NCBI GenBank assembly: GCA_963820525.1
Contig: CAWGAA010000001.1
Coordinates: 704,001 to 768,000, forward strand
Direction of reading: 5' to 3'
From: an uncultured Spirochaetota bacterium
GTDB lineage: Bacteria > Spirochaetota > Spirochaetia > SZUA-6 > Fen-1364
Length of the DNA: 64,000 nucleotides
Both the position numbers and the translations under genes were made by a program. Of the stretch, positions 17-64,000 are shown piece by piece. Position 1 is the stretch's first letter, and every line of letters begins with the position of its first letter. Below the pieces are notes generated by a model that saw nothing but the letters and a program-made list of their open reading frames with translations, was not told where the DNA came from and ran no database searches.

Positions 17-132
17 ACATAACATGCTGTTGGAGCAGACCGCTTAGGCTACGCGTCGTTACTAATTCATACGTGTGCTAAAGTAATTGTACCTGTATGA
101 TGCTGCGCGGCTGCTCAACAGCGTCGTTATAT
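17..132 (+). repeat. attC site, GAGCAG/CTGCTC subtype (example)
   Basis: R'' ACATAAC at 17-23; L'' GTTGGAGCAG pairs with L' CTGCTCAAC leaving one extra G; R' GTT at 126. Identical to the attC at 17159-17270. Confidence 0.93.
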
Positions 133-415
133 CCATCTAGATTTATATTGATTAGCGAATAGACAACGAATTATTAATTCAATAATAGAAGATAAGACGC
201 TTTTCAATAGCTTTTTGCCCATGATGGCGTTGACATTGCTCCGTAAGGATGGCGGTGTTGTACTACATTGCTTGCTTTTCTTTAGTTTCAATACATGGCA
301 CGTCACCTCGTCTTGCCAACACCGATTGCATTCAACGGCTCGGATCAAGCTCCTTCAATTGATTCGATAGACCTTTTCTGCTTTCCTCAACGCCATCATA
401 CTGGATGGATATAAC
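126..415 (+). other. Family A gene-less cassette, representative copy
   Basis: Terminal IR GTTATATCCATC/GATGGATATAAC; internal IR ATGATGGCGTTG (221-232)/CAACGCCATCAT (388-399); no reading frame conserved across copies. Confidence 0.9.
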
Positions 416-523
416 ATGCTGTTGGAGTTGTCCGCCTAGGCTACGCGTCGTTACTTATAGCTACGTTTGCTAGGGTTCCTTCGGTTGCTGATTCGGGGCG
501 GCAACTCAACAGCGTCGTTATCT
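409..523 (+). repeat. attC site, GAGTTG/CAACTC subtype (most common; example)
   Basis: ATATAAC ATGCT GTTGGAGTTGTCCGCC...GGGGCGGCAACTCAAC AGCGTC GTT. Confidence 0.93.
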
Positions 524-800
524 CCATCTAGATTTATATTGATTAGCAATGAAGTTAAGAATTATTAATTAAATAATCTTGGATAAGACGCTTTTCAATT
601 TCATGTTTGCCCATGATGGCGTTGGCCTTTCTCTGGAAGGATGGCGGTGTTGTACTAGGTTGCACGCTTGTTTTTAGTTTCAATGCATGGCACGTCACCT
701 TGGCTTATTATCACCGATTACATTCAACGGCTCTAATCAAGCTCTTTCAATTGATTCGCTAGATCTTTTCTGCTTTCCTCAACGCCATCATACTGGATGG

Positions 801-914
801 AGATAACATGTCGTTGCAGCTGACCGCCCAAGCTACGCGTCGTCACTTGAAACTATGCGTGCTCAGCTATTTCCTTTTTTTGAGGCGGGGCGGCAGCTGA
901 ACTCCTTGTTATCT
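801..914 (+). repeat. attC site, CAGCTG/CAGCTG subtype (example)
   Basis: AGATAAC ATGTC GTTGCAGCTGACCGCCC...GGGGCGGCAGCTGAAC TCCTT GTT. Confidence 0.93.
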
Positions 915-1352
915 CCATCTCAATTTATCTTGATTAGAAATGAAGTAAAGAATTATTAATTCAATGATCTTTGATAAGACGTTTTTCAATAGCTTGTTTG
1001 CACATGATGGCGTTGGCATTGCTCTGGAAGGATGGCGATGTTGTACTACATTGCCTGCTTGTCTTTAGTTTCAATGCATGGCACGCCACCTTGGCTTATT
1101 ATCACCGATTACATTCTACGGCTTAGATCAAGCTCTTTCAAATGATTCGCTAGATCTTTTCTGCTTTCCTCAACGCCATCATACTGGATGGAGATAACAT
1201 GTCGTTGCAGCTGACCGCCCAAGTTACGCGTCGTCACTTGAAACTACGCGTTCTCAGGTATTTCATTTTCTTGAGGCGGGGCGGCAGCTGAACTCCTTGT
1301 TATCTCTCCCTAAGACTTGACTGTTGTGCATATTTTATGCATCATTGTGCAT

Positions 1353-1553
1353 ATGAGAACTACTCTTAACATCGACCCTACTCTCCTTAGAGAGGCAACA
1401 AGACTAACAGGGATATCCGAAAAGACTTCCCTTGTCCGTATGGGCCTTCAGGCCCTGATCTCCAAAGAAAGTTCTAAGCGTTTGGCTGAGCTTGGCGGAA
1501 CTGAAAAGAGTCTTCGTTCTATCCCAAGAAGACGACCTAAGAAGACAGCATGA
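1353..1553 (+). CDS. vapB: VapB-type antitoxin
   Basis: MRTTLNIDPTLL N-terminus typical of VapB; ATGA overlap with a PIN toxin. Start moved to ATG 1353. Confidence 0.85.
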   Translation: MRTTLNIDPTLLREATRLTGISEKTSLVRMGLQALISKESSKRLAELGGTEKSLRSIPRRRPKKTA

Positions 1554-1906
1554 TCCTAGTTGATACTTCTGTTTGGATAGATCATTTTCGAAATGACAAT
1601 GCAGAGCTGCGCAAGTTATTAAACAACAATGAAGTTATGACTCACCCTTTTATTATTGGTGAACTTGCTTGCGGACTCATACAAAATAGATCAGAAATAC
1701 TTAACCTTCTGGCCGAGTTGCCTGCTGTTATAACGGCAGATCATCAGGAAGTGCTAAAGCTCATCGAATCAAAGAAACTCTATGGTTCTGGAATTGGATT
1801 GATTGATGCACATTTAATTGCATCAGCGCTAATAACCAAAGTTGGAATCTTCACTCTTGATAAACCTTTGGCAAAAGCAACTTCATATCTTGGAATAAAC
1901 CAATAA
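1550..1906 (+). CDS. vapC: VapC PIN-domain toxin
   Basis: MILVDTSVWIDH...GELACG...IDAHLIASA...TLDK, PIN acidic motifs. Confidence 0.9.
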   Translation: MILVDTSVWIDHFRNDNAELRKLLNNNEVMTHPFIIGELACGLIQNRSEILNLLAELPAVITADHQEVLKLIESKKLYGSGIGLIDAHLIASALITKVGIFTLDKPLAKATSYLGINQ

Positions 1907-3035
1907 ATTTCATAGTTATCATAGGATGTTTCATTCAACTGTTGAGAATCTCTATATTCAGTATCCTCATAGAAGGTTATATTGACCCGTTTGGAATAAG
2001 TCATGCTTGGATATCAGTTTTCCAGCACATAAAACGAATTAATGAAAGGGAGAGATAACATGCTGTTGGAGTTGACCCCTTAGCCTACGTTTTGAAAGTG
2101 TAGCATGTGTTGCTAAACCGCCACTACCCTGCTTCGGGCGGCGGGGCAACTCAACAGCGTTGTTATCTCCATCTAGATTTATATTGATTAGCAAATAGGC
2201 GACAAATTCTTAATTCAAGAATATTGGATAAGACGTTTTTCAATAGCTTGCTTTCCCATGATGGCGTTGGCATTGAGCGGGAAGGATGGCGGTGTTGTAC
2301 TAGTTTGCCTGCTTGTTTTTAGGTTCAATACACTGCTCGTCACCTTGGCTTATTGTCACCGATTACACTATAGGGCTCGGATCAAGTTCTTTTAATTGAT
2401 TCGATTGCTCTTTTTCTGCTTTCCTCAACGCCATCATACTGGATGTAGATAACATGTCGTTGCAGCTGACCGCCCAAGCTACGCATCGTCACTTAAAACT
2501 ACGCGCGCTCAGGTATTTCTTTTTTTGATGCGGGGCGGCAGCTGAACTCCTCGTTATATCCAATCTAGATTTATATTGATTATCGAATAGGCAACGAATT
2601 AGTAATTCAATAAAAAGAGATAATACGTGTTTCAATAGCTTGTTTAACCATGATGGCGTTGGCATTGCTCTGGAAGGATGGCGGTGTTGTACTAATGTTG
2701 CTTGCTTGCTCTTAGTTTCAATACACTGCACGTCACCGTGGCTTAATGGTCAACGATTTCATTATAGGGCTCGGATCAAGCTCTTTCTCTTGAAACAACA
2801 ACTCTTTTCTGTTGTCCTCAACGCCATCATACTGGATGGATATAACATGCTGTTGGAGTTGTCCGCCTAGGCTACGCGTCGTTACTTATAGCTACGTTTG
2901 CTAGGGTTCCTTCGGTTGCTGATTCGGGGCGGCAACTCAACAGCGTCGTTGTGCGGGCTCTACGGCTCTGTGGGGGCGGCACCTTTCGTGAATGCTCGAG
3001 TGGTCATCGACCGTCCCTTCCCGAGGGAGGTAATC

Positions 3036-3560
3036 ATGATACGTCAGTCGCGGCCTGTTGATTTCGATGCGATCTACACGATCATCAACAATGCAGCAAT
3101 TGCCTACAAAGGTATCATTCCAGACGACAGATGGCACGATCCCTATATGACTCGGGCGGAGCTGCATGAGCAAATTGACGGCGGCGTAAAGTTCTCCTGC
3201 TACTGTGAAGATGATGAGGTTCTTGGCGTAATGGGGATCCAGGACAAGAATGACGTCTTTCTAATACGGCATGCATATGTTCTTACAACCAGCCGGAACA
3301 AGGGAATTGGAACAAAGCTCCTAAAGGAACTAACACGCAACTCGGAAAAACCTGTTTTGATCGGAACCTGGAAAGCCGCAACATGGGCAATTGGCTTCTA
3401 TCTTAAGAATGATTTCAAGCTTGTCACGGAAGAAGAGAAGGGAGTTCTGTTGAGGAAGTACTGGAGTATTCCGGAAAGGCAAGTTGAAACCTCAGTGGTT
3501 CTTGCAGATGGAAAGTATGAAAAGGCAAAAGCCAAGCTCTTATCGCCAGGTTCAGGCTGA
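3036..3560 (+). CDS. GNAT family N-acetyltransferase
   Basis: RHAYV..RNKGIGTKLL acetyl-CoA motif A and FYLKNDF. GGGAGG precedes ATG 3036; the longer ORF call runs through an attC. Confidence 0.88.
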   Translation: MIRQSRPVDFDAIYTIINNAAIAYKGIIPDDRWHDPYMTRAELHEQIDGGVKFSCYCEDDEVLGVMGIQDKNDVFLIRHAYVLTTSRNKGIGTKLLKELTRNSEKPVLIGTWKAATWAIGFYLKNDFKLVTEEEKGVLLRKYWSIPERQVETSVVLADGKYEKAKAKLLSPGSG

Positions 3561-3635
3561 AATGACCTTAGCAGGCATGATCGAATAGCCCTATCTATGT
3601 GGACATCGCCGTAGGATCAGGGCTTAAGGAGAGCC

Positions 3636-3751
3636 GCACAACAAGTCGTTGAAGCCGACCCCTTGACATCCGGCTGAAAGTGGGGCAGCGGATTCGTAAA
3701 AGCCGTCACGGTTGATCTGATGCGGCGGGGCGGCTTAACTCCATGTTATCT
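3636..3751 (+). repeat. attC site, AAGCCG/CGGCTT subtype (example; also ~9828, ~26471, ~49271)
   Basis: GCACAAC AAGTC GTTGAAGCCGACCCC...GGGGCGGCTTAAC TCCAT GTT. Confidence 0.92.
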
Positions 3752-3774
3752 CCATCTCAATTTATCTTGATTAG

Positions 3775-4339
3775 AGTCTCCTACGGGGAGAAACCCCCTC
3801 GTCTTTAGACGAAGACTTTAGTAGGCTTGCGGTACGATGAAGCAGTATCGAAAAGCGTCGCACTGCGTCTATGATTTGAAGTATCATATAGTGTGGATCA
3901 CCAAGTACCGCAAGCCAGTGTGGGGGAAAGAGATAGGAACCCGCGTAAGAGATCTGATACGAATGATTTGCGCGAGCCTGGACGTAGAGATCGTGAAAGG
4001 GAACATCAGCCGCGATCACGTGCATCTGCTGCTGAGCGTGCCGCCGACTCTATCGGTATCCAGGCTCGTGCAGCGCATGAAGGGGCTGACATCACGGAAG
4101 CTGCTCATGGAAAACAAAGGGTTGAACAAAACATTCTGGGGCAGGCATCTTTGGGCCCGCGGGTATTTCGTGGCGAGCACAGGGAACGTGACCGAAGAGA
4201 TGATCGCCCGCTACATCGAGAATCAGCAGGACACAGAGCGGGACCAAGATGCCGACTTCAAAGTAGAACCGTGATGTCGGCCCCAGTCGGCTTTAGCCGA
4301 CAAGCGCAAACCCCCCGACTTAAGTCGGGGGTGGTTTAG
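3775..4339 (+). mobile_element. IS200-like element (tnpA only) in a family A cassette
   Basis: Interrupts TTAG|AAATGAAG relative to the intact twin at 908. Subterminal hairpins TCGTCT-TT-AGACGA and CCCCCGACT-TA-AGTCGGGGG. Confidence 0.9.
3837..4274 (+). CDS. tnpA: IS200/IS605 Y1 (HUH) transposase
   Basis: YHIVWITKYR, DHVHLL (HUH), LWARGYF, RYIENQ. Confidence 0.95.
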   Translation: MKQYRKASHCVYDLKYHIVWITKYRKPVWGKEIGTRVRDLIRMICASLDVEIVKGNISRDHVHLLLSVPPTLSVSRLVQRMKGLTSRKLLMENKGLNKTFWGRHLWARGYFVASTGNVTEEMIARYIENQQDTERDQDADFKVEP

Positions 4340-4700
4340 AAATGAAGTAAAGAATTATTAATTCAATGATCTTTGATAAGACGTTTTTCAATAGCTTGTT
4401 TGCACATGATGGCGTTGGCATTGCTCTGGAAGGATGGCGATGTTGTACTACATTGCCTGCTTGTCTTTAGTTTCAATGCATGGCACGCCACCTTGGCTTA
4501 TTATCACCGATTACATTCTACGGCTTAGATCAAGCTCTTTCAAATGATTCGCTAGATCTTTTCTGCTTTCCTCAACGCCATCATACTGGATGGAGATAAC
4601 ATGTCGTTGCAGCTGACCGCCCAAGTTACGCGTCGTCACTTGAAACTACGCGTTCTCAGGTATTTCATTTTCTTGAGGCGGGGCGGCAGCTGAACTCCTT

Positions 4701-5020
4701 GTTACATCCACGCTAATAATTTCTTTGAGAGAATATTTTGCCTGTTCTGTTTTGAATTATTCAAAGCAAATAAAGAATTCGATTTAGCAATCTTGCAGGT
4801 TTTACTTTGGTGAATTCCTCTGATACTTTTGCGCGGGCCATGTAAGTTCCCATTGGAACAGCTCGCGCCCATTAGCTGAAAGGGCATTATCAACTTTTAA
4901 CATCATTTTCTTTCGCTATGCCCGAATTCTATCATCAATCAACTAACCTTATATTTTCTTCATATCGTGAAGCTTCTTTGCTGGCCCGCGCATATTGTTC
5001 TGTTTCCGCGTAGATGTAAC
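4701..5020 (+). other. Family B gene-less cassette, representative copy
   Basis: TGCGCGGGCCA 4830-4840, GCTCGCGC 4861-4868, TGGCCCGCGCA 4982-4992, and inner hairpin GTTCC-CATT-GGAAC. Confidence 0.9.
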
Positions 5021-6698
5021 ATGCGGTTGGAGCAGACCGCTTGGACTGCTCGTCGTTACTGATTCTTCCTCGTGTTAAATCAAATGAACCTATATGATGC
5101 GGCGCGGCTGCTCAACCGCGTCGTTATCTCCATCTAGATTTATATTGATTAGCAAATAAGCAACGAATTATCAATTCAAGAATATTTGATAAGACGTTTT
5201 TCAATATTTTGCTTTCCCATGATGGCGTTGGCATTGGGCGGGAAGGATGGCGGTGTTGTACTAGTTTGCCTGCTTGTTTTTAGGTTCAACACACTGCGCG
5301 TCACCTTGGCTTATTGTCACCGATTACACTATTGGGCTCGGATCAAGCTCCTTTAATTGATTCGATTGCTCTTTTTCTGCTTTCCTCAACGCCATCATAC
5401 CGGATGGAGATAACATGTCGTTGCAGCTGACCGCCCAAGCTACGCGCCGTTATTCGAAACTACGCGCGCTCAGGTATTTCCTCTTTTTGAGGCGGGGCGG
5501 CAGCTGAACTCCTTGTTATATCCAACCAGATTCATATTGATTAGTAATGATTTAAGAATCTTTAAATCAATAATCTTGGATAAGACGTTTTTCAATTAAT
5601 GGCTGTTACATGATGGCGTTGGCATTGTTCTGGAAGGATGGCGGTGTTGTACTACATTTGGTTGCTTTTTTTAGTTTCAATGTATAGCACGTCACCTTGG
5701 CCTATTGTCACCGATTACATTATAAGGCCCTGATCAAGTCATTTTGATTGATACGATGAATCTTCTTCTGCTTTCCTACAACGCCATCATACTTGGTGGA
5801 TATAACATGCTGTTGGAGTTGTCCGCCTTGGCTACGCTTCTTTACAAATAACTACGCACGGTAAAGCCGATTGTACTTGGATGATTCGGGGCGGCAACTC
5901 AACAGCGTCGTTATATCCAACCAGATTCATATTGATTAGCAATGATTTAAGGAATCCTTAATTCAATAATCTTGGATAAGATGTTTTTCAATTGATTGCT
6001 TTCCCATGATGGCGTTGGCATTGTTCTGGAAGGATGGCGGTGTTGTACTACATTTGGTTTCTTATTTTTAGTTTCAAAGTATGGCACGTCACCTTGGCTT
6101 ATTATCACCGATTACATTATAAGGCTCTGATCAAGTCATTTCGATTGATACGATGAATCTTCTTCTGCTTTCCTACAACGCCATCATACTTGGTGGATAT
6201 AACATGCTGTTGGAGTTGTCCGCCTAGGCTACGCTTCGTTACAAATAACTACGCACGGTAAAGCCGATTGTACTTGGATGATTCGGGGCGGCAACTCAAC
6301 AGCGTCGTTATCTCCATCTAGATTTATATTGATTAGCAAACAAGCAACGAATTATTAATTCAAGAATATTGGAGAAGACGTTTTTCAATAGCTTGCTTTC
6401 CCATGATGGCGTTGGCATTGGGCGGGAAGGATGGCTGTGTTGTACTAGTTTGCCTGCTTGTTTTTAGGTTCAATACTCTGCTCGTCACCTTTGCTTATTG
6501 TCACCGATTACATTATAGGGCTCGTATCAAGCTCTTTTAATTGATTCGATTACTCTTTTTCTGCTTTCCTCAACGCCATCATACTGGATGGAGATAACAT
6601 GTCGTTGCAGCTGACCGCCCAAGCTACGCGCCTTCACTTGAAACTACGCGCGCTCAGGTATTTCCTTTTTTTGAGTCGGGGCGGCAGCTGAACTCCTC

Positions 6699-7036
6699 GT
6701 TATATTCACGCATATTGAAGATTCTTAGATAATTTCAGTATTAGTTCCCTGTATACGTATGCTTGAGTATTGCTATCATAAAGGGCTTTTTTCCTATTTG
6801 AGTAATGTTGTGAGATTCACCTCTTTCATTTCTTTTCTTTCCTTTGCGCGGGCCCTGGTAGTCACTAGGTCAAAGCTCGCGCCACTCTTTTGGTAGCCTC
6901 TCTTACCTTTTAACCTTGTTTTCTTTCGTTCAAGGTTGAAGTCTAGATTCAACCTGTTGCGGTCAGCTTTTTTCACTCTCTTATAGTTCTCTGCATCGGC
7001 CCGCGCTAGTCTCTTATGTTTCCGCGTAAATATAAC
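6699..7036 (+). other. Divergent family-B-like gene-less cassette
   Basis: Body barely alignable to family B, but keeps GCGCGGGC 6846-6853, GCTCGCGC 6875-6882, GGCCCGCGC 6998-7006 and the TGTTTCCGCGTA..TAAC end. Confidence 0.85.
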
Positions 7037-7184
7037 AAGTCGTTGCAGCTGACCGCCTAGGCTACGCGTCGTTAGAAATAACTACGCTCGTTCAAGTATT
7101 TTTTCTTTCTTGATTCGGGGCGGCAGCTGAACTCCATGTTGGATGGCGCTTCGACAACAGGCCTTCTTGCGGTAGACTGATGCC

Positions 7185-8034
7185 ATGAAGAAAGCAAACG
7201 AAACAAGCGCTGCGGAAGCATTCGCTCTTGTTCTTTCAGCAATCAACAACAAGGTGTACCGTCTGCTCGATTCACCCGACGAGAAGAATAGGGTCACTTC
7301 CGACATTGATTATGTATATGCATCCGCCTCTGGCAGAGGGTCTCATGTGGCGGCTGAGCATACAATCGTTGAATCCTTTGAGGGACAGCTTGCTTACGTC
7401 AACCAATCTTTTGATGTCGCGGCCGAGATCAATACTATTTGCAAGGGCAAGATCCCCCCAGACCGATATTTCTTCCTGGCCATACCAGATCTCCTTGTTA
7501 GATCGCTAGACAGACCGAGACGAACCGCCTTTGTCGAACATATTTCTTCAGTCATTGCCAAGGAATGCTTGCATCTACAAGAGGACGGGCACACCAAAAT
7601 ACCGTTCAATGAACATGATATCTGGCTGATGTGCCGAGGCAGTCATCCAGAAATGAACGGGAATGTCTTTCGAATCCCCAAGGCGCCGGAAGAGGGAGAT
7701 ACCTTACAGCGCCAGAGACTTGCTCGCGCTCTTACGATGAAGTTGCCCAACCTATGCAAGTATAAGCTCAAGGGCTTCACAACGGCTCTGCTGCTTGAAG
7801 ATATTTCTGGGGGCCTCTCCAACATCGGTTTCCATGGCCGATCGATAAAAGTTCTGCATCGGATTGCGATACGGTTTTTCGTAAACTATGTCGTTGTCTT
7901 TGCATCCAACAATCAGCGTATGATAGTCGGCAATGTCTGGAAGGAAAACGGAAGGTGGTATGGAAACGTTCCCTATGCCTAGAAGATTCCATTTCACTTA
8001 CGATATAACTGGTAAAATGCAGATTGGCACTTAG
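7185..8034 (+). pseudogene. Hypothetical protein, copy with a +1 frameshift near the 3' end
   Basis: Identical to 11968-12816 except an extra C (TATGCCTAG vs TATGCTAG) that gives a stop at 7982. Could be a sequencing error. Confidence 0.7.
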
Positions 8035-9066
8035 GTATCAACAGAGCGGCCTTTCGGAGATGCGCCATCCAACAAGTCGTTGCAGCTGACGCCTAAGATT
8101 TCGTCTGAAAGATACAGCTCTGTTTCATAGAACCGTCGGGGCTGTGGTGACTCGGCGGCGCAGCTGAACTCTATGTTATATCCATCTAGATTTATATTGA
8201 TTAGCAAATAATCAACGAATTATTAATTCAAGAATAGAAGATAAGACGCCTTTCAATAGCTTGCTTGCCCATTATGGCGTTGGCATTGTTCTGCAAGGAT
8301 AGCGGTGTTGTACTACATTGGTTGCTTGTCTTTAGTTTCAATTTATGGCACGTCACCTTGGCTAATTGTCACCGATTACATTCAACGGCTCGGATCAAGC
8401 TCTTTTAATTGATTCGATAGATCTTTTCTGCTTTCCTCAACGCCATCATACTGGATGGATATAACATGCTGTTGGAGTTGACCGCCTAGGCTACGCTTCG
8501 TTACTAATAACTACGCTAGCTGAAGTATTTGTACTTGGCTGATTCGGGGCGGCAACTCAACAGCGTCGTTACATCCACGCTAATAATTTCTTTGAGAGAA
8601 TATTTTGCCTATTCTGTTTTGAATTATTCAAAGCAAATAAAGAATTCGATTTAACAATCTTGCAGGTTTTACTTTGTTGAATTCCTCTGATACTTTTGCG
8701 CGGGCCATGTAAGTTCCCATTGGAACAGCTCGCGCCCATTAGCTGAAAGGGCATTATCAACTTTTAACATCATTTTCTTTAGCTATGCCCGAATTCTATC
8801 ATCAATCAACTAACCTTATATTTTCTTCATATCGTGAAGCTTCTTTGCTGGCCCGCGCATATTGTTCTGTTTCCGCGTAGATGTAACATGCGGTTGGAGC
8901 AGACCGCTTGGACTGCTAGTCGTTACTGATTCTTCCTCGTGTTAAATCAAATGAACCTATATGATGCGGCGCGGCTGCTCAACCGCGTCGTTATGCATAC
9001 TTGAAAACTACTATAGGTGCTTTTATTTACACTATAGGTTGGCTTGAGGTATTGGAGGAACCGACA

Positions 9067-9804
9067 TTGTCCGCAACTGATAAGTATGCCGACGTCGCCG
9101 AACGGTATGGTGAAATGCTGCAGGATGACCCAAGCCGCGAGATGTTCTTCAAAAGAACATTTGATAAGTTTCATGCAAAGAGCATTTTGGATTGCGCATG
9201 CGGAACTGGAAAGGACTTATTGCTTTTCCACTCCATGGGCTACGTCGTAATCGGATCAGACCTCTCTGATTCTATGCTCAAAGTATCGCAAAAAGCCATT
9301 AGCGAACACCGGGCAAACATTATTCTGAGAAAGGGAGACTTCCAGAATCTAAGGGCAGTACATAGTGAGGTGTTTGATGCGGTACTATGCCTGAGCAATT
9401 CGATAAACGAAGCCGAGGTTGATCCAATTAGGGCATTAGAAAGTATGAAACAGGTACTCAAGCCCGACGGAATCATCATCCTGGACCAGGGCCAGACAGA
9501 TTTGTCGATGCAGGATCCGCCCTCTTATGTGCCAATAATGAACAATCAGAATCTGTCACGACTCTACACAATGACATACGACAAAGACATAATGACCGTG
9601 AACATTTTCGATTTCATCCATGATGAGAAAGCAAAGAAGTACGATTTTAGCCACAGCCAGTTCAAAATCTGCATCAGACTTTATGCAGATTGGAGAGCAA
9701 TTCTACAGAGGGCTAACCTGAAAGCAGAATTCTATGGAAATTGGGAAGGGGAAAAATACGATCCAAATAGAAGCAAAAGGTTGATCATCGTTGCTAGGAA
9801 ATGA
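9067..9804 (+). CDS. Class I SAM-dependent methyltransferase
   Basis: ILDCACGTG motif I, GSDLSDSML, LKPDGIIILD. GGAGG precedes TTG 9067. Confidence 0.88.
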   Translation: MSATDKYADVAERYGEMLQDDPSREMFFKRTFDKFHAKSILDCACGTGKDLLLFHSMGYVVIGSDLSDSMLKVSQKAISEHRANIILRKGDFQNLRAVHSEVFDAVLCLSNSINEAEVDPIRALESMKQVLKPDGIIILDQGQTDLSMQDPPSYVPIMNNQNLSRLYTMTYDKDIMTVNIFDFIHDEKAKKYDFSHSQFKICIRLYADWRAILQRANLKAEFYGNWEGEKYDPNRSKRLIIVARK

Positions 9805-11967
9805 AGTTAAGAGCAAATCGAAAGTATGCATAACAAGTCGTTGAAGCCGACCCCTTAAATTGCGTGTGGAGAGTGGGGCCTACGCTCCGTAAAAACGGCC
9901 AAGGCTGATTTTATTCGGCGGGGCGGCTTAACTCCATGTTATCTCCATCTAGATTTATATTGATTAGCAAATAAGCAACCAATTATTAATTCAAGAATAT
10001 TGGATAGGACGTTTTTCAATAGCATGCTTCCCCATGATGGCGTTGGCATTGGGCGGGAAGGATGGCTGTGTTGTACTAGTTTGCCTGCTTGTTTTTAGGT
10101 TCAATACACTGCGCGTCACCTTGGCTTATTGTCACCGATTACATTATAGGGCTCGGATTAAGCTCTTTTAATTGATTCGATTGCTCTTTTTCTGTTTTCC
10201 TCAACGCCATCATACTGGATGGAGATAACATGTCGTTGCAGCTGACCGCCCAAGCTACGCGCCTTCACTTGAAACTACGCGCGCTCAGGTATTTCCTTTT
10301 GTTGAGTCGGGGCGGCAGCTGAACTCCTCGTTATATCCATCTAGAATTATATTGATTAGTGAAGAAGCATCGGATTATTAATTCGATAATAATAAAATAC
10401 GTTTTTCAATTGCCTGTTTGCCTATGATGGCGTTGGCATTGCTCTGGAAGGATGGCGGTGTTGTACTACATTGCTTGCTTGTCTTTAGTTTCAAGGCATG
10501 GCACGTCACCTTGGCATATGTCACCGATTACATTCTACGGCTCGGATCAAGCTCTTTCAATTGATTCGATAGGTCTTTTCTGTTTTCCTCAACGCCATCA
10601 TACTGGATGGATATAACATGTCGTTGCAGCTGACCGCCCATGCTACGCGTCGTCACTTGAAATTACGCGTGCTCAAGTATTTCCTTTTGTTGAGTCGGGG
10701 CGGCAGCTGAACTCATTGTTATATCCATCTAGATTTATATTGATTAGCAAATAATCAACGAATTATTAATTCAAGAATAGAAGATAAGACGCCTTTCAAT
10801 AGCTTGCTTGCCCATTATGGCGTTGGCATTGTTCTGCAAGGATAGCGGTGTTGTACTACATTGGTTGCTTGTCTTTAGTTTCAATTTATGGCACGTCACC
10901 TTGGCTAATTGTCACCGATTACATTCAACGGCTCGGATCAAGCTCTTTTAATTGATTCGATAGATCTTTTCTGCTTTCCTCAACGCCATCATACTGGATG
11001 GATATAACATGCTGTTGGAGTTGACCGCCTAGGCTACGCTTCGTTACTAATAACTACGCTAGCTGAAGTATTTGTACTTGGCTGATTCGGGGCGGCAACT
11101 CAACAGCGTCGTTACATCCACGCTAATAATTTCTTTGAGAGAATATTTTGCCTATTCTGTTTTGAATTATTCAAAGCAAATAAAGAATTCGATTTAACAA
11201 TCTTGCAGGTTTTACTTTGTTGAATTCCTCTGATACTTTTGCGCGGGCCATGTAAGTTCCCATTGGAACAGCTCGCGCCCATTAGCTGAAAGGGCATTAT
11301 CAACTTTTAACATCATTTTCTTTAGCTATGCCCGAATTCTATCATCAATCAACTAACCTTATATTTTCTTCATATCGTGAAGCTTCTTTGCTGGCCCGCG
11401 CATATTGTTCTGTTTCCGCGTAGATGTAACATGCGGTTGGAGCAGACCGCTTGGACTGCTAGTCGTTACTGATTCTTCCTCGTGTTAAATCAAATGAACC
11501 TATATGATGCGGCGCGGCTGCTCAACCGCGTCGTTATATCCATCTAGAATTATATTGATTAGTGAAGAAGCATCGGATTATTAATTCGATAATAATAAAA
11601 TACGTTTTTCAATTGCCTGTTTGCCTATGATGGCGTTGGCATTGCTCTGGAAGGATGGCGGTGTTGTACTACATTGCTTGCTTGTCTTTAGTTTCAAGGC
11701 ATGGCACGTCACCTTGGCATATGTCACCGATTACATTCTACGGCTCGGATCAAGCTCTTTCAATTGATTCGATAGGTCTTTTCTGTTTTCCTCAACGCCA
11801 TCATACTGGATGGATATAACATGTCGTTGCAGCTGACCGCCCATGCTACGCGTCGTCACTTGAAATTACGCGTGCTCAAGTATTTCCTTTTGTTGAGTCG
11901 GGGCGGCAGCTGAACTCATTGTTGGATGGCGCTTCGACAACAGGCCTTCTTGCGGTAGACTGATGCC

Positions 11968-12816: not shown

Positions 12817-12956
12817 GTATCAACAGAGCGGCCTTTCGGAGATGCGCCATCCAACAAGTCGTTGCAGCTGACGCCTAAGATTTCGTCTGAAAGATACAGC
12901 TCTGTTTCATAGAACCGTCGGGGCTGTGGTGACTCGGCGGCGCAGCTGAACTCCTT

Positions 12957-27872: not shown

Positions 27873-27911
27873 AAACATCTAGATTTTAAGGCCCCATCAT
27901 GGTATTCTCAT

Positions 27912-51698: not shown

Positions 51699-52241
51699 TT
51701 GATGCTGGATGAAGAGATAGATTTGTGGGCGACGGATGAGGTACACTTTCAGCAGTACGGCTCACGATGCCGAATGTGGGTTCCACCCGAAGTCAAAGAT
51801 CCGGTACTGTTACATTATCCCGGGCGAAAGAGCGTGGGATACTTCGGTGCCGTTCGTCTGCGCGACGGCAAATTCTTCTTCAAACGCGAAGAGGATAGTT
51901 TCGACGCGAATACATTCTTCGTGTTCATGAAGCAATTGCGCTTCAGAACTTCAAAGAGTCAAAGGCGCATCGTCGTGATCACTGATAATGCTAGATACCA
52001 CCATGCAAAGCTCCACAAGCAGTGGCGCGAGGAGCACAGTGCATCTTTCATACTCGATTATCTGCCGCCGTATAGTCCCGATCTGAACCCAATCGAAAGG
52101 ATGTGGAAGCTCACCAGACGGCTCTGTCTGCATAACAGATACTTCCCTACTATGAGCGATGTCACGTCCGCGGTTGAAGACCGCTTCGCTCAGTGGGAGG
52201 CTCCAAATGAAACATTACGTCGTCTATGCGCAATTACTTAG
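51699..52241 (+). CDS. IS630 transposase, DDE part
   Basis: Same protein as 39367-39909. Confidence 0.9.
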   Translation: MMLDEEIDLWATDEVHFQQYGSRCRMWVPPEVKDPVLLHYPGRKSVGYFGAVRLRDGKFFFKREEDSFDANTFFVFMKQLRFRTSKSQRRIVVITDNARYHHAKLHKQWREEHSASFILDYLPPYSPDLNPIERMWKLTRRLCLHNRYFPTMSDVTSAVEDRFAQWEAPNETLRRLCAIT

Positions 52242-53111
52242 GACGCTATGTATAGCAATGAAACAATGAATTAATAATTCAATAATATAGGATAAGACGT
52301 TTTTCAATTTCATGTTTGCCCATGATGGCGTTGGCATTGCTCTGGAAGGATGGCGGTGTTGTACTACATTGCCTGCTTGTCTTTAATTTCAATGCATGGC
52401 ACGTCACCTTGGCTTATTATCACCGATTACATTCTACGGCTCGGATCAAGCTCTTTCAATTGATTCGATAGATCTTTTCTGCTTTCCTCAACGCCATCAT
52501 ACTGGATGGAGATAACATGTCGTTGCAGCTGACCGCCCAAGCTACGCGTCGTTACCGTAAACTACGCTCACTCAAGCATTTGTTTATTCTTATGCGGGGC
52601 GGCAGCTGAACTCATCGTTATCTCCATCTAGATTTATATTGATTAGCAAATAAGCAACGAATTATCAATTCAAGAATATTTGATAAGACGTTTTTCAATA
52701 TTTTGCTTTCCCATGATGGCGTTGGCATTGGGCGGGAAGGATGGCGGTGTTGTACTAGTTTGCCTGCTTGTTTTTAGGTTCAACACACTGCGCGTCACCT
52801 TGGCTTATTGTCACCGATTACACTATTGGGCTCGGATCAAGCTCCTTTAATTGATTCGATTGCTCTTTTTCTGCTTTCCTCAACGCCATCATACCGGATG
52901 GAGATAACATGTCGTTGCAGCTGACCGCCCAAGCTACGCGCCGTTATTCGAAACTACGCGCGCTCAGGTATTTCCTCTTTTTGAGGCGGGGCGGCAGCTG
53001 AACTCCTTGTTATCCCGCTTCGGACATAAAATACTTCGGTATTTTATGGCATGCAATTGCATTTCTCAAATAGAACAATCCTTGTCCAGATTGAAAGACA
53101 TCGAAACTACC

Positions 53112-53671: not shown

Positions 53672-53677
53672 ACCACC

Positions 53678-53706: not shown

Positions 53707-54320
53707 TAGCTGGATACAATGATAGAAAAAAAGAGCGGGATAACAAGTCGTTGCAGTTGACCGCCTGGGTTCAGCCTTTCACGGAGGAACGACGTCCGTC
53801 GAACTGGCGCATAATCATCTGATTCGGGGCGGCAACTGAACTCTATGTTATATCCACGCTAAAGAAATTCTTTGTGAGAATATTTTGCTTCTTCTGTTTT
53901 GAATTACTCAAAGCAAATGAAGAATTCTCTTTCACAATCTTGCGGGTTTTACCTTGTTGAATTCTTTTGATACCTGTGCGCGGGCCATCTACGTTCCTGT
54001 TGGAACAGCTCGCGCATGTTAGCAAAAGGGGCATTAATTACCTTTTTTAGCATCACTTTCTTTCGCTTTTCCTGAATTCTATCATCAATCAACTAACCTG
54101 ATATTTTATCCATATCGTGAAGCTTGTCCTTCGGCCCGCGCATATTGGTCTGTTTCCACGTAGATATAACATGCTGTTGGAGTTGACCGCCTAGGCTACG
54201 CTTCATTACCAATAGCTACGGGCGGTAAAGCATTTTGTACTTGGATGATTCGGGGCGGCAACTCAACAGCGTCGTTATGACGCCCAAATTTTCAGTAGCT
54301 TGAATTGCTAATCTGATGAC

Positions 54321-54967: not shown

Positions 54968-55532
54968 TATTTAATAGTTTTTAATTATAAGATTTTTCGG
55001 GGGCGTCATAACATGCTGTTGGAGTTGACCGCCTAGCCTACGTGTCGTGACTTAGAGCTACGCGCGGTAGAGCCTTTTGTACTTGGATGACTCGGGGCGG
55101 CAACTCAACAGCGTCGTTATATCCATCTAGATTTATATTGAGTAGCAAATAAGCAACGAATCATTAATTCAATAATAGAATATAAGACGCTTTTCAATGG
55201 CTTTTTTGCCCATGATGGCGTTGGCATTGTTCTGGAAGGATGGCGGTGTTGTACTACATTTGGTTGCTTGTTTTTAGTTTCAATGTATGGCACGTCACCT
55301 TGGCTTATTGTCACCGATTACATTCGACGGCTCGTATCTAGCTCTTTCAATTGATTCGATAGATCTTTTCTGCTTTCCTCAACTCCATCATACTGGATGG
55401 ACATAACATGCGGTTGGAGTTGTCCGCCTAGGTTACGCGTCGTTACTGATTGTTACGCTTGCTATGGTTCCTTCGGTTGCTGATTCGGGGCGGCAACTCA
55501 ACCGCGTCGTTACACGGCGCTAATTCAATCGC

Positions 55533-59162: not shown

Positions 59163-60597
59163 CTGCCTAACATGCTGTTGGAGTTGACCGCCAAGGTTAC
59201 GCTTCGTGACTTTTAACTACGCGCGCTAAAGCCTTTTGTACTTAGATGATTCGGGGCGGCAACTCAACAGCGTCGTTATATCCATCTTGATTTATATTGA
59301 TTAGTGAAGAAGCATAGGATTATTAATTCGATAATAATAAAAGACGTTTTTCAATTGCCTATTTGCCTATGATGGCGTTGACATTGCTCTGTAAGGATGG
59401 CGGTGTTGTACTACATTGCTTGCTTTTCTTTAGTTTCAATACATGGCACGTCACCTCGGCTTGCCAACACCGATTGCATTCAACGGCTCGGATCAAGCTC
59501 CTTCAATTGATTCGATAGATCTTTTCTGCTATCCTCAACGCCATCATACTGGATGGATATAACATGCTGTTGGAGTTGTCCGCCTAGGCTACGCGTCGTT
59601 ACCAATAGCTACGCGCATTGAAGTCTTGGTACTTGGATGATTCGGGGCGGCAACTCAACAGCGTCGTTACATCCACGCTAATAATTTCTTTGAGAGAATA
59701 TTTTGCCTGTTCTGTTTTGAATTATTCAAAGCAAATAAAGAATTCTATTTAGCAATCTTGCAGGTTTTACTTTGGTGAATTCCTCTGATACTTTTGCGCG
59801 GGCCATGTAAGTTCCCATTGGAACAGCTCGCGCCCATTAGCTGAAAGGGTATCATCAACTTTTAACATCATTTTCTTTCGCTATGCCCGAATTCTATCAT
59901 CAATCAATTAACCTTATATTTTCTTTATATCGTGAAGCTTCTTTGCTGGCCCGCGCATATTGTTCTGTTTCCGCGTAGATGTAACATGCTGTTGGAGTTG
60001 TCCGCCTAGGCTACGCGTCGTTACTGATAGCTACGCGTGTTGAAGTATTTGTACTTAGATGATTCGGGGCGGCAACTCAACAGCGTCGTTATATCCATCT
60101 AGATTTATATTGATTAGCAAATAAGCAACGAATTATTAATTCAATAATAGAAGATAAGACGCTTTTCAATAGCTTTTTGCCCATGATGGCGTTGGCATTG
60201 TTCTGGAAGGATGGCGGTGTTGTACTACATTTGGTTGCTTGTTTTTAGTTTCAATGTATGGCACGTCACCTTGGCTTATTATCACCGATTACATTCAACG
60301 GCTCGTATCAAGCTCTTTCAATTGATTCGATAGATCTTTCCTGCTTTCCTCAACGCCATCATACTGGATGGACATAACATGCGGTTGGAGTTGTCCGCCT
60401 AGGTTACGCGTCGTTACTGATTGTTACGCTTGCTATGGTTCCTTCGGTTGCTGATTCGGGGCGGCAACTCAACCGCGTCGTTATACGTTTTAGAAATCGA
60501 AAGCAAAACATTATATTTCAATTTATAAGGTATTTTGTTGACTCCAATCATTTTAAAGCACATCCTATAGTCAGACCTAAACCTTTGCTTAAGTGTT

Positions 60598-61131
60598 ATG
60601 AAATGTTCTGTTTTCATAGCAACAAGCCTTGACGGCTGCATATCACGTGCAAACGGAAACATTGACTGGCTAATTAGCATATCTGATGCAAAAGAAGACT
60701 ATGGATACAATGCTTTTTACCAATCCACAGATTGTCTAGTAATTGGGCGCAAAACATATGAAACAGCCCTGTCATTTGGACAATGGCCTTACGAAAACAA
60801 AAAGGTCATAGTACTCACATCTAATCCGAGTACCATAAACAAGAGATTGGGTTTAGATGTTCAAACGATGTCTTTATCTCCTTTAGAGATTTTAAAAACA
60901 CTAGAATCAAACGGATATAAGCATGCGTATATTGATGGAGGAAAAACAATACAATCCTTTTTAAATGAAGGCCTTATCAATGAAATCACAATTACCTTTA
61001 TACCAATACTAATAGGAGACGGGATCCGATTATTTGGTCCTCTGAATTCCGATATAATACTCAAACACATTGAAACCAAAACTTATTCAAATGGCTTTGT
61101 ACAAATCAAATACGCATTATCAATTTTTTAA
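60598..61131 (+). CDS. Dihydrofolate reductase/RibD C-terminal family protein
   Basis: FIATSLDGCI...IDWL...GRKTYE...IDGG...IPILIGDGIRLF. Confidence 0.88.
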   Translation: MKCSVFIATSLDGCISRANGNIDWLISISDAKEDYGYNAFYQSTDCLVIGRKTYETALSFGQWPYENKKVIVLTSNPSTINKRLGLDVQTMSLSPLEILKTLESNGYKHAYIDGGKTIQSFLNEGLINEITITFIPILIGDGIRLFGPLNSDIILKHIETKTYSNGFVQIKYALSIF

Positions 61132-61629
61132 ATGACTATAATTTATCAGTATTCATAATTTTAAAACAAAGGAAAACGTATAACATGCTGTTGGAGCAGA
61201 CCGCTTAAGCTACGCGTCGTGACTTATTACTACGCGTGCTAAATTAATTGTTCCTGGTTGATGCGGCGCGGCTGCTCAACTCATTGTTACATCCACGCTA
61301 ATAATTTCTTTGAGAGAATATTTTGCCTGTTCTGTTTTGAATTATTCAAAGCAAATAAAGAATTCTATTTAGCAATCTTGCAGGTTTTACTTTGGTGAAT
61401 TCCTCTGATACTTTTGCTCGGGCCATGTAAGTTCCCATTGGAACAGCTCGCGCCCATTAGCTGAAAGGGCATCATCAACTTTTAACATCATTTTCTTTCG
61501 CTATGCCCGAATTCTATCATCAATCAATTAACCTTATATTTTCTTTATATCGTGAAGCTTCTTTGCTGGCCCGCGCATATTGTTCTGTTTCCGCGTAGAT
61601 GTAACATGCTGTTGGAGTTGACCGCCTAG

Positions 61630-63371
61630 CCCGCATTTCTCACAAACGGCACTCTGCGCAGTCTAATCATCATGAGGCGGGGCTCAACTTTGAAAAACGG
61701 TCTATTCCTTGCTGTCAGCCCCTACACGTAGATCGATTTCGTGACCCGAGTCAGTTCAATCGCCCGATTGAGCGCACTTTACAGTTCATAAGGGAAGATT
61801 CGGCGACTTCAGGACAGTCTTCTCCCAATAAACTACTCAAGACAAGGCTCAATACACGCTAACCCGATTGAAGGGAGAGTTCGTGAATACTCAGAATCAC
61901 CTGACGGAAAAGCTCTTGATATGGATAACCGCTTGCGAAGCTCACATAGATCCGGCGCACACTGACGCGCACCTGTGCGCCAATCTTCAATAGCTTCAAA
62001 CGAATCGTGTCGCACTGTGCCGAGGCCAGCTCTGTCCCCTTCAAAGCGGTCCTTCTGAGGGCACTCATGATTACGTAGGCCGCAGAGGAGAACCACAACC
62101 GAAGCTGATTCGCCCTCATCGTGGCGGAACTGGTTCGATCTGCAAAAAGGTAAAGCTGCTGTTCTTTGATACGATTCTCCATGTCTCCGCGAGCACAATA
62201 GAGCTGCTCGTACAGCTGCTGGCCAGGGAAGCGGTCCTGCATAAGTGAAGTCACCACAAACCGAGGGTTCTCTCCCTTGCGCAGATACTCCGCCTTGGCG
62301 ACAACACGTCTGCTTTTCGACCATGTCTTTTTCGTCCGATAGATCAGCTCCGCGTACTTTCGCGACGGCTCACCAGTGGACAGATACTGCCTGCGGGCTT
62401 CTGAAAGCTCCTTGCGGATCTTGCGTAAGAGGCGTGCGTTTTTCGCGATTCCGAACAGGAAATCCACGTCGTTGGACTCGCACCACACCATGATCGCTTC
62501 CCGGCAGAACCCGCTGTCGGCCCGCACAACAATACGTACCTGCGGCCATCGCTCACGGATCTGCGCAACGATCCTCGCCAACTCCTTCTCGGCACCCGAA
62601 CATGCGTCTATATTGGAGGGACGTAGCTTCGCACATAAAAGATGATCCCCGCAGAAGATGTACAACGGCAGGTAGCAATAACAATCATAATAGCCATGAA
62701 AGAACCTGCCCTCTTGATTGCCGTGCAGAGGGTCGTCGGTTGCATCCAGATCCAACACGATTTCTTCAGGAGCTTGCTCATAACTGGCCAGGAATGTGTT
62801 CACCAGGAACATCCCAACCATTGTTTCGTTCACCGTGATTTTCTTGTATCGATGCGTAGAGAGGCTTGCCCCGCCGGCGGTCTCAAGCCGATTCAGCGTG
62901 CTTTTTCCGGCAAGGGCTTTGCCTCTGTCCCGTTTCTGCCTCCTCGTTTCCCCGTTGACATCGAGTTTCCCGCAAACGGCAGCCAGAACGGGATCTTTGC
63001 GCAGCTGGTCGTGATCGTTGAGGTCTTCGTATCCCAGGCAAATGCCGAATACCCTTTGGCTTATCAATTGCTCGATGGAATGCTCGATATAGCCTTTCTC
63101 TCGATAGTCTGTGAAACAGCCCGCGAATGCTTTGATGATGCCTGTGGCGCGTTCGACCTCTCGAAGAATGAGAGCGCCGGCATCGGAACTGATCGCGCCT
63201 CCGTCGAAGTTTCCGACTACCTTTTTCTTGCCAAGGTCTTGAAAGCTAAACAGGGATGGTGTACAGTCTGTTTGCATCGTATAGCCTTTCTGTTCTGGTT
63301 TATTTTGTTTGTTGCAAAGCAATTATACCAGAGCGAAAGGCTTTTTCATATCCATTTGTGAGAAATGCGGG
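61630..63371 (-). mobile_element. Second IS1380 family element, inserted inside an attC site
   Basis: 17-bp TIR CCCGCATTTCTCACAAA; CTAG TSD at 61626-29 and 63372-75 within ACCGCCTAGGCTACG. Confidence 0.94.
61859..63277 (-). CDS. IS1380 family transposase
   Basis: FDGGAISSDAG, LDLDATDD, RADSGF, YCARGDMENRIKEQQ; related to, but distinct from, 40400-41815. Confidence 0.93.
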   Translation of the reverse strand: MQTDCTPSLFSFQDLGKKKVVGNFDGGAISSDAGALILREVERATGIIKAFAGCFTDYREKGYIEHSIEQLISQRVFGICLGYEDLNDHDQLRKDPVLAAVCGKLDVNGETRRQKRDRGKALAGKSTLNRLETAGGASLSTHRYKKITVNETMVGMFLVNTFLASYEQAPEEIVLDLDATDDPLHGNQEGRFFHGYYDCYCYLPLYIFCGDHLLCAKLRPSNIDACSGAEKELARIVAQIRERWPQVRIVVRADSGFCREAIMVWCESNDVDFLFGIAKNARLLRKIRKELSEARRQYLSTGEPSRKYAELIYRTKKTWSKSRRVVAKAEYLRKGENPRFVVTSLMQDRFPGQQLYEQLYCARGDMENRIKEQQLYLFADRTSSATMRANQLRLWFSSAAYVIMSALRRTALKGTELASAQCDTIRLKLLKIGAQVRVSVRRIYVSFASGYPYQELFRQVILSIHELSLQSG

Positions 63372-64000
63372 CTAGGCTACGCGTCGTTACTGATAGCTAC
63401 GCGTGTTGAAGTATTTGTACTTAGATGATTCGGGGCGGCAACTCAACAGCGTCGTTATCTCCATCTCAATTTATCTTGATTAGAAATGAAGTAAAGAATT
63501 ATTAATTCAATGATCTTTGATAAGACGTTTTTCAATAGCTTGTTTGCACATGATGGCGTTGGCATTGCTCTGGAAGGATGGCGATGTTGTACTACATTGC
63601 CTGCTTGTCTTTAGTTTCAATGCATGGCACGCCACCTTGGCTTATTATCACCGATTACATTCTACGGCTTAGATCAAGCTCTTTCAAATGATTCGCTAGA
63701 TCTTTTCTGCTTTCCTCAACGCCATCATACTGGATGGAGATAACATGTCGTTGCAGCTGACCGCCCAAGTTACGCGTCGTCACTTGAAACTACGCGTTCT
63801 CAGGTATTTCATTTTCTTGAGGCGGGGCGGCAGCTGAACTCCTTGTTATATCCAATCAAATTTATGATGATTAGAAATGATGTAAAGAATTATAATTCAA
63901 TAATATTGGATAGGAGGTTTTTCAATAGATTGCTTTCCCATGATGGCGTTGACATTGCTCTGGAAGGATGGCGGTGTTGTACTACTTTTCATGCTTGTCT

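Follow-up and report, generated by a model that had tools for sequence, protein, structure and literature searches.

The window analysed here is a stretch of 64,000 nucleotides (C1:704001-768000) from the 5.05-Mb, four-contig genome of an uncultured spirochaete (G000); C1 coordinates refer to that genome's contig, and coordinates without a prefix to the window itself. Over its whole length (1-64000, + strand) the window is a section of a 140-kb sedentary chromosomal integron, which spans C1:683478-824370 and holds 174 cassettes, all on the + strand. Two families of short cassettes, here called A and B, look non-coding and make up 106 of the 174 (61%). Each carries perfectly complementary boxes close to its attC recombination site, and the copies appear to have been multiplied cassette by cassette within the array. 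The spirochaete flagellar sheath protein FlaA scores 241 bits in this genome and is absent from 14/14 control genomes.

The integrase gene intI lies 21 kb to the left of the window on the - strand. Its product, IntI, is a 411-residue open reading frame (ORF; L003:1459-2694, - strand) that scores 410.1 bits with TIGR02249, against a cut-off of 265, and the match at C1:682092-683030 points away from the array, the divergent arrangement that is usual for integrons. About 95 extra N-terminal residues precede the TIGR02249 match (residues 99-411); the IntI matches of relatives sit in open frames of 430-540 residues, which suggests that this extension is shared. An attI-like junction (...AAATG followed by TTATATCC) is found 150 bp from the intI start, with a TATAAT immediately upstream that is only a candidate for the promoter Pc. 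The first cassette after the junction belongs to family A; the slot adjoining attI is where IntI inserts. A second integron is present at C1:1954228-1963800 (IntI 448.6 bits, - strand, with at least 4 attC hits at 1956604-1963662), and a profile search found neither A nor B cassettes in it.

Cassettes were delimited with our own profile of the left half of the attC palindrome, followed by a full-length attC profile, a cruder procedure than IntegronFinder. The left-half profile gave 87 sites on the + strand of the window and no credible site on its - strand. The full-length profile added two diverged sites (~3638-3750 and ~26472-26581), and the resulting 89 sites correspond to 88 complete cassettes and one cut at the window's end. 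A partner arm that ends in GTT lies 105-110 nt downstream of each site, and the 172-179 profile hits over the whole array, all on the + strand, are 104-112 nt long. Cassette borders fall at the canonical crossover between G and TT, the attC sites having R'' (..AAC) and R' (GTT..) boxes; an alignment of B cassettes shows compensatory changes in the stem of attC and at the termini of R' and R''. The start of a cassette is complementary over 12-14 nt to its own R'', in ordinary cassettes as well (in cassette 4, for example, TTATCTCTCCC at the start and GGGAGAGATAAC at the end); the matching stretch belongs to attC as its extended R box and is not a trait of A and B. Read by hand with the rule of Nivina 2016, the attC at 409-519, for instance, has its unpaired bases on the AAC-bearing arm of the + strand, a position that fits the + strand as the top strand. 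These unpaired bases are G and T/A, giving C and A/T on the bottom strand, where G and T are usual.

Among the 34 window intervals of at least 445 bp, two of which actually hold two cassettes each, the longest ORF was called on the + strand in 30, and the four exceptions are transposase carriers. Pfam families typical of cassette cargo (VapBC, GNAT, methyltransferase, BD-FAE esterases, PIN7, nitroreductase and RibD_C) fit 29 of the 45 ORFs scanned, and further ORFs fit transposases of the IS66, IS630, IS1380 and IS30 types. The array is a sedentary chromosomal integron of ordinary layout. Its cassettes have a GC content of about 42% (A 42.3, B 41.5, gene-size cassettes 42.5), compared with 60.4% for the genome; the gap of 18 points greatly exceeds the 3-6 points given for Vibrio arrays (PMC1382264). 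Arrays of relatives have 49-63% GC.

Cassette families A and B

The whole array comprises 66 A cassettes (61 of them intact), 40 B cassettes (35 of them intact), 67 cassettes of gene size and a single other small one. The window holds 36 A, 22 B (21 plus one of a subtype, B') and one other short cassette, 59 ORF-less cassettes in all. Body profiles matched A 67 times (62 full length, 42 distinct) and B 42 times (28 distinct), the latter counting the B' subtype and insertion-split halves; every one of these hits lies at C1:683-818 kb on the + strand, with none elsewhere in the genome. A cassettes are 388-398 bp long (about 392), B cassettes 418-427 bp (about 422) and B' 439 bp. The mean pairwise identity of the 42 distinct A bodies is 85% (74-99.7%) and that of the 28 distinct B bodies 78% (55-99.7%); B' is only ~55% identical to B outside the boxes described below. 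The two families have just one 14-nt motif in common. We also considered the bodies as degenerate attC sites and dropped this idea, because the attC profile matched neither consensus body. The order of cassette types is near random, with 28 A-A, 11 B-B and 27 gene-gene neighbours among 173 transitions, where ~25, 9 and 26 are expected.

The original prediction, made from the letters of the window, had described 59 of 89 cassettes as lacking a credible ORF, 57 of them in two families, each copy with its own attC and interleaved with gene cassettes. Both parts stand: the 59 comprise 57-58 members of the two families, the attC profile finds a site for each copy, and gene cassettes do stand interspersed among the copies. 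It had also stated that copies diverge by substitutions and 1-bp indels while keeping their length, and the identities and lengths given above agree with this, as do the gap runs, of which 13 of 15 distinct ones in A and 12 of 19 distinct ones in B are 1 bp long.

The reference copy of family A lies at 127-517 on the + strand, as do all the copies that follow. Two further A cassettes adjoin it (518-908 and 909-1299), and a pair follows at 2163-2553 and 2554-2948. Four stand in a row at 5124-5515, 5516-5910, 5911-6307 and 6308-6699, one is at 8176-8568, and a row of three (9939-10330, 10331-10718 and 10719-11111) is followed by single copies at 11534-11921, 14936-15329, 15757-16147 and 17269-17660. 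Another row of three occupies 18797-19193, 19194-19585 and 19586-19978. The remaining intact copies are at 22568-22965, 23393-23786, 26577-26968 (its upstream attC, ~26472-26581, is one of the two detected by the full-length profile alone), 33905-34298, 38520-38914, 38915-39308, 45171-45562, 52618-53009, 55117-55509, 59276-59666, 60089-60480 and 63455-63845, which brings the intact A cassettes of the window to 32. Three more contain insertions (3746-4701, 39309-42545 and 49382-52617), and one is cut by the window's end (63846-64000).

The reference copy of family B is at 4702-5123, and the B' cassette, which has kept all boxes, at 6700-7138, again on the + strand like all others. B cassettes without insertions are found at 8569-8990, 11112-11533, 14517-14935, 15330-15756, 20822-21240, 21241-21665, 22966-23392, 31721-32143, 35198-35623 and 35624-36042, in a row of four at 36833-37250, 37251-37671, 37672-38094 and 38095-38519, and at 42546-42967, 43866-44287, 53848-54274 and 59667-60088. 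One B cassette is split by an IS66-family element (26969-29916), and the attC of another (61287-63454) is split by an IS1380-type element, whose transposase occupies 61859-63322 on the - strand. The single ORF-less cassette outside both families is 272 bp long (12958-13229, + strand).

Four A copies are broken at the same place, around their position 24-26 between ...TTGAT and TAG..., namely those at 39309-42545, 49382-52617, 3746-4701 and C1:788031-789439. The first two contain the same pair of IS630-type and IS1380-type transposase genes in opposite orientations. In the third, behind the first ~23 nt of the cassette, a GC-rich insert of ~570 bp (~3771-4339) has hairpin-rich ends and a 148-residue ORF that has no Pfam match; it recurs as a separate 570-nt contig in one metagenome run, and it is possibly a mobile element of small size. 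Interruptions directly after the same left-arm sequence, ending in GTTGACCGCCTA, occur in four attC sites (61640-63440 in the window, and C1:~802741, ~805134 and ~813579). The insert at 61640-63440 carries the IS1380-type transposase gene (DDE_Tnp_1_4, 536 bits), and it may represent an insertion sequence that targets attC.

Coding potential was assessed by sliding Nei-Gojobori dN/dS in all six frames together with stop counts, which is cruder than RNAcode. No frame was both stop-free and low in dN/dS: stop-free windows gave ratios of 0.6-2.2, and the lowest ratios (0.28-0.5) occurred only where there was at least one stop per window. The per-column entropy of the A and B alignments has no period-three signal, and the paralogues of both families are conserved over their full length without a synonymous-site pattern. 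The longest start-to-stop ORF of a window copy mostly has 37-65 residues, with 73-83 in a few copies, so that the limits used elsewhere for gene-less cassettes (150 bp in Boucher 2006; 210 bp or 70 residues in Blanco 2024) are exceeded in some copies. None of the six longest A/B ORFs had a credible Pfam or NCBIfam match. In a search of 5.8 billion proteins, A retrieved only this genome's own call and B retrieved nothing. Families A and B thus look non-coding, as the original prediction had it, while a fast-evolving micro-peptide would be beyond the reach of such tests and could still be encoded.

The most concrete candidate for a coding role is an A ORF starting at the conserved ATGATGGCG box (MMALAL...), which would make the cassettes carriers of small proteins, perhaps a membrane peptide or toxin, or of pseudogenes. 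This ORF of 40-60 residues is partly hydrophobic, lies on the + strand in the usual cassette orientation and is open in most window copies. Its dN/dS is nevertheless 0.8-1.7, the variation in A is not concentrated at third positions, and 1-bp indels shift or break the frame in several subfamilies. By eye, no Shine-Dalgarno-like purine run precedes it; it matches no known family, searches of protein databases brought up no relatives of it, and the B subtypes have no ORF in common. We regard this explanation as very improbable.

Complementary boxes beside attC

Each family has perfectly complementary GC-rich boxes that enclose a domain of ~170-190 nt beside attC. In the A reference copy, an AT-rich 5' part is followed by the 3' domain and by the copy's own attC (R'' ~409, crossover between G and TT at 517/518). 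The near-invariant box H1a, ATGATGGCGTTG, is at 221-232, and its perfect complement H1b, CAACGCCATCAT, at 388-399, ~9 nt before the extended R'' of attC. The B reference copy, with its own attC (R'' ~5014), has three boxes: Box1, GCGCGGGCC, at 4831-4839; Box2, GCTCGCGC, at 4861-4868; and Box3, GGCCCGCGC, at 4983-4991, ~20 nt before the extended R''. Box3 is the perfect complement of Box1, and Box2 is an alternative partner of Box1 (8 pairs, one of them G-U on the + strand). A small hairpin, GTTCC-CATT-GGAAC, lies between Box1 and Box2 at 4846-4859; B' has a different hairpin instead, with a CG to AU change at an aligned pair. Predicted minimum-energy folds join Box1 to Box3 in B and Box1 to Box2 in B'.

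These boxes have changed far less than their surroundings. When the 42 distinct A bodies are placed on a tree, 540 parsimony changes fall on 283 sites (1.91 per site), and the 24 sites of the two A boxes account for only 5 of them, where ~46 would be expected; none of the 5 is compensated. All three B boxes are identical in B'. As a control, bodies were searched for the longest stretch in their last 45 nt that is perfectly complementary to the upstream part, A bodies being trimmed, which shortens the A lengths. Of 61 A copies, 54 had a stretch of 9-13 nt, and of 35 B copies, 32 had one of 9-11 nt; shuffled sequences gave ~6 nt, and 65 of 67 gene cassettes at most 9 nt. Given the few changes on the tree, the identity between B and B' and the difference from both shuffles and gene cassettes, the boxes are therefore real, family-specific and under constraint. 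That short GC-rich complementary boxes are kept had been claimed from the letters of the window, and the boxes do prove to be far beyond chance.

It is improbable, by a wide measure, that the cassettes are neutral debris, that is, functionless passengers that multiplied by chance and resemble one another through recent duplication and gene conversion. Exact twins do exist for 41 of the 96 intact A/B cassettes, and mosaic copies of subtypes, such as the B cassette at 37672-38094, show that exchange between copies takes place. The very uneven changes per site, the survival of the boxes between B and B' at ~55% identity elsewhere and the constant length despite many 1-bp indels all argue otherwise; box conservation is thus higher than recent duplication would lead one to expect.

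Covariation was assessed with RNAalifold pair counts, a cruder measure than R-scape. In 26 distinct B cassettes the covariation term was only -2.74 kcal/mol, and 9 of 47 pairs had changes on both sides: five in the attC stem, two in the R-box termini (columns 4/340 and 7/337) and two in body hairpins, one between Box1 and Box2 and the other directly before Box3. Pair counts on the A alignment gave the same picture, with no covariation of the boxes. A search of the window with Rfam 15 gave 0 matches at gathering scores, and none at E<=1 over 4600-5620, which covers one A and one B cassette. The covariation and Rfam checks proposed with the original prediction thus brought no support for boxes that covary or for a known RNA family. 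Whole cassettes fold better than shuffled sequences, with z between -2.8 and -5.9, for much of which attC accounts. A bodies alone had a mean z of -2.1 (+ strand) and -1.1 (- strand), B bodies one of -2.3 on both strands, and pieces of gene cassettes one of ~0.

These folding data bear on the possibility that the closed domains work as structured sense-strand RNA, either in trans as small RNAs or in cis, for example by shielding transcripts from Rho or RNases, by insulating neighbours or, in B, by switching between the Box1:Box2 and Box1:Box3 pairings. The excess stability of whole cassettes, and of bodies relative to gene-cassette controls, speaks for such RNAs, and G-U pairs make the fold of the A sense strand ~12 kcal/mol more stable than that of the antisense strand. 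A double constraint on Box1, which pairs with Box2 in the minimum-energy fold of B' and with Box3 in that of B, would explain why it is invariant, and the hairpin between Box1 and Box2 has been replaced by another hairpin in B'. We nevertheless consider an RNA function rather improbable, since Rfam is silent, the covariation term is small with two-sided changes mostly in the attC stem and R-box termini, and the closing helices are pure Watson-Crick, as expected of repeats that act at the DNA level.

Multiplication within the array and its possible causes

Of 74 A/B pairs with a full-length identity of 99% or more, 72 have no neighbour in common, two share one and none shares both. Because near-identical pairs almost never share neighbours, segmental duplication was not the main route of multiplication. 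A twin at 99% identity or more is present for 60 of the 96 intact A/B cassettes and for 14 of the 67 gene-size cassettes. A bodies are joined to at least four attC classes, and B bodies likewise, and the largest attC class (46 sites) serves 17 A, 9 B and 20 gene cassettes; since that class is common to gene cassettes, a special attC is not the cause of the success of A and B. Body and attC have been re-assorted among cassettes. Altogether, the comparison of copies supports amplification cassette by cassette, which fits copy-and-paste by IntI. Mobilisation by the integron integrase, as claimed in the original prediction, is likewise supported by the presence of IntI, by an A cassette in the first slot after attI and by near-identical copies in different contexts.

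The two end regions of the array (C1:683-704 kb and 806-824 kb) have seven gene cassettes and several A copies in common, at 99% identity or more, in roughly mirrored order and the same orientation; this could reflect cassette shuffling or an assembly problem in repeat-rich DNA. Contigs from four metagenome runs, compared with positions 1-20000 of the window, contain A, B and gene cassettes at 90-100% identity that are joined at cassette borders (for example 7137 to 14935, and 2552 to 1299). Contigs of repeated DNA are unreliable, and the same types of junction, such as B' followed by A, occur elsewhere in the array; these contigs were therefore not used as proof of rearrangement between strains.

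Our preferred reading, to which we give a probability of about 40%, is that A and B are self-propagating non-coding cassettes with a conserved fold that aids their own recombination. IntI would copy cassettes singly: a cassette would be cut out as a circle and inserted anew at attI, the original being retained on the replicated sister, and A and B would act as its non-autonomous, selfish passengers. Their body plan would combine a variable AT-rich 5' part with a domain of ~170-190 nt closed by an invariant GC-rich Watson-Crick helix abutting attC (ATGATGGCGTTG/CAACGCCATCAT in A, GCGCGGGCC/GGCCCGCGC in B), and selection would be maintaining this fold. In a single-stranded array the fold would compact the body and shorten the effective distance between the flanking attC hairpins, and it may also stabilise the folding of those hairpins; more frequent excision and re-insertion, and with them more copies, would follow from either. 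Being pure Watson-Crick, the closing helices would work on either DNA strand, and in a predicted bottom-strand DNA fold of one A example with its flanking attC sites, both attC hairpins and the H1a-H1b helix (H1) form. The more specific proposal, that the closing helices are cis-acting recombination helpers which, by closing up the single-stranded body beside attC, turn the cassettes into hyper-mobile IntI substrates and define by their fold a new class of integron parasite, we hold to be doubtful.

The direction of replication is relevant to this mechanism. The dnaA gene (C1:2616238-2617554) lies at the minimum of the cumulative GC skew (2.62 Mb); the skew peaks at 0.22 Mb and declines from there to 2.62 Mb. 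From the position of dnaA and the skew, the bottom strand of a canonical attC would be on the lagging-strand template. By the same data, cassette ORFs would be head-on to replication. Loot 2017 (PMC5371416) reports more excision in the lagging-template orientation, dependent on the distance between attC sites, and describes large arrays as normally being in the opposite orientation, which would make this 174-cassette array unusual.

Several points weigh against a recombination-aiding fold. The boxes never covary, so that their pairing follows only from the perfect complementarity of invariant sequences, and the few copies with mutated boxes are uncompensated; invariant, uncompensated boxes fit sequence-specific recognition equally well as structure. 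Even with H1 included, the mean z of A bodies is just -2.1 (+ strand) and -1.1 (- strand), and bodies that lack H1b fold no better than shuffles (mean z -0.2). H1 carries nearly all the excess stability of A, and the inner helices of A are unsupported. In A the + strand exceeds the recombinogenic bottom strand in stability by ~12 kcal/mol, a difference that speaks for a sense RNA rather than for bottom-strand DNA, and a 5' part of ~95 nt remains outside the H1 fold, so that the gain in proximity would be modest. According to Loot 2017 (PMC5371416), an effect of cassette length was consistent only for very long cassettes. The orientation of replication itself rests on a weak skew in an unclosed four-contig assembly. 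Finally, the high copy number could have been positively selected.

Selection for a benefit to the array is the core of a further explanation, in which A and B are promoter or regulatory cassettes: promoters in their AT-rich bodies (sense, antisense or both) would switch on or silence neighbours far from Pc, and the cassettes would have been kept and multiplied for what they do for array expression. Precedents exist in Vibrio, where most of 29 gene-less cassettes from four sedentary chromosomal integrons are reported to have sense-strand promoter activity (PMC11014356), and in Treponema, where ORF-less integron cassettes are described as acting as promoters (PMC6557892). The cassettes, at 42% GC in a genome of 60%, abound in AT-rich stretches that resemble promoters, and an antisense site resembling TTGAAA-N17-TAGAAT is present in 28 of 61 A copies. 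Consensus scans found no conserved sense-strand sigma-70-like site in A or B, however, and scans for promoters and terminators gave no enrichment; in a 2.6-kb sample there were 8 promoter-like sites, compared with 5.4 +/- 2.1 in shuffles. Such scans are uninformative here. Promoters in gene-less cassettes are described as unpredictable in silico (Blanco 2024, PMC11014356), and the explanation is weakly tested by such means. The best-conserved parts of A and B are the GC-rich boxes and not promoter hexamers, and six A cassettes in a row beside attI, together with the near-random order, are unlike a module that is needed ahead of genes. We consider a regulatory origin of the abundance possible, though on the whole unlikely. 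Under our preferred reading of self-propagating cassettes, promoter activity of the AT-rich part would be likely but incidental, and not the reason for the abundance. The original prediction had named structured RNAs, promoter or spacer modules and selfish cassettes as possible functions of a non-coding system mobilised by IntI; both the non-coding nature and the mobilisation are supported, and the three functions are not separable by the present analysis.

Relatives and known systems

IntI scores above the cut-off in 25 of 41 genomes of the family and order, this genome counted. BLASTN with A and B found neither in any of 40 relatives (0/40 each), many of whose genomes are incomplete and whose arrays assemble poorly. 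Nor was A or B present in eight stretches beside the intI genes of relatives, despite 59 attC profile hits there. Scans for the exact boxes gave one locus for A among genome contigs, on a Gemmatimonadaceae contig of 63% GC without similarity to A, B or attC, and 34 loci for B among metagenome contigs, all of which have 63-75% GC and lack any match to the profiles of A, B or attC. The loci of both scans are chance hits in GC-rich DNA; such scans require exact boxes, so that diverged relatives are missed. These searches of other genomes and contigs retrieved no further members, and A and B appear to be lineage-specific. The sequencing runs listed as containing window positions 4702-14516 are DNA metagenomes only (freshwater sediment, wetland and soil; 20 entries from 14 studies), and no RNA run is among them.

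The array of one relative (G005; L076, G005:C6:49485-69484) has a repeated cassette of its own, 448-450 bp long, which makes up 4 of 21 cassettes with copies 91-99% identical and has no frame that is stable between two copies. Lineage-specific families of short cassettes may be common in this group of spirochaetes.

Large chromosomal integrons are generally portrayed as banks of genes. In this array, ~60% of the 174 slots are taken up by two families of gene-free DNA, and the integrons of Treponema are the only ones studied in the phylum; the finding extends the observation from Vibrio that non-coding cassettes may dominate an array. With two independent families and box pairs that can be mutated, the array is also a test case for the question raised in 2006, whether such cassettes exploit the integrase selfishly or serve the integron in a regulatory role. 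If it is true that the boxes raise recombination, the success of a cassette would depend on DNA folding beyond attC.

The closest known counterparts are the non-coding cassettes of Vibrio. Boucher 2006 (PMC1382264) gives their share as 6-49% of an array, with 107 of 219 cassettes in V. vulnificus CMCP6, and describes them as typically paralogous, one family having 45 and 34 copies in two strains, as restricted to close relatives and as apparently under purifying selection. Two hypotheses were put forward there (PMC1382264), that they are selfish elements or that they are promoters beneficial to the integron. The original prediction had presented the amplified families as nearly without precedent, and this does not hold, given that non-coding paralogous families making up as much as 49% of an array were described in 2006 (PMC1382264). 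Like A and B, the Vibrio families are reported to be ORF-less, to have their own attC (59-be), to be paralogous within one array and confined to close relatives, and to have no synonymous-site pattern (PMC1382264). The present array differs in its host, an uncultured spirochaete, in its share of 107 out of 174 (61%) against a reported maximum of 49%, and in its copy numbers of 66 and 40 (PMC1382264 for the Vibrio values), and the sequences of the families are not similar. Closing helices beside attC are described here for A and B, and the Vibrio families were not compared on that trait; the literature we searched, supplements being outside its scope, contained no description of such helices in gene-less cassettes.

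A and B also resemble the gene-less cassettes of Blanco 2024 (PMC11014356) and Tansirichaiya 2019 (PMC6557892) in being short, in having no credible ORF and in residing in large chromosomal arrays. An influence on neighbours is possible, as in promoter-bearing gene-less cassettes, and the Treponema cases are likewise from spirochaetes (PMC6557892). The promoter-bearing cassettes are described as mostly single or low-copy (9 in V. cholerae N16961 and 13 in V. vulnificus), with promoters established by experiment (PMC11014356), whereas A and B are massively amplified, have no conserved promoter that we could see and are known from sequence alone.

Finally, A and B share with miniature inverted-repeat transposable elements (MITEs) and with the repetitive extragenic elements REP/BIME a short, non-coding and highly repeated make-up, conserved inverted repeats and dependence on an enzyme encoded elsewhere. 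Unlike these, all copies (106/106) lie in the array, in one orientation and bounded by attC, with none elsewhere in the genome, and, unlike in MITEs, no target-site duplications flank the inner inverted repeats when the sequence is read by eye. The confinement to the array, the single orientation, the attC borders and the absence of target-site duplications point to mobilisation by IntI and not by a transposase. Among known systems, A and B are thus a rather extreme case of the amplified non-coding cassettes already described.

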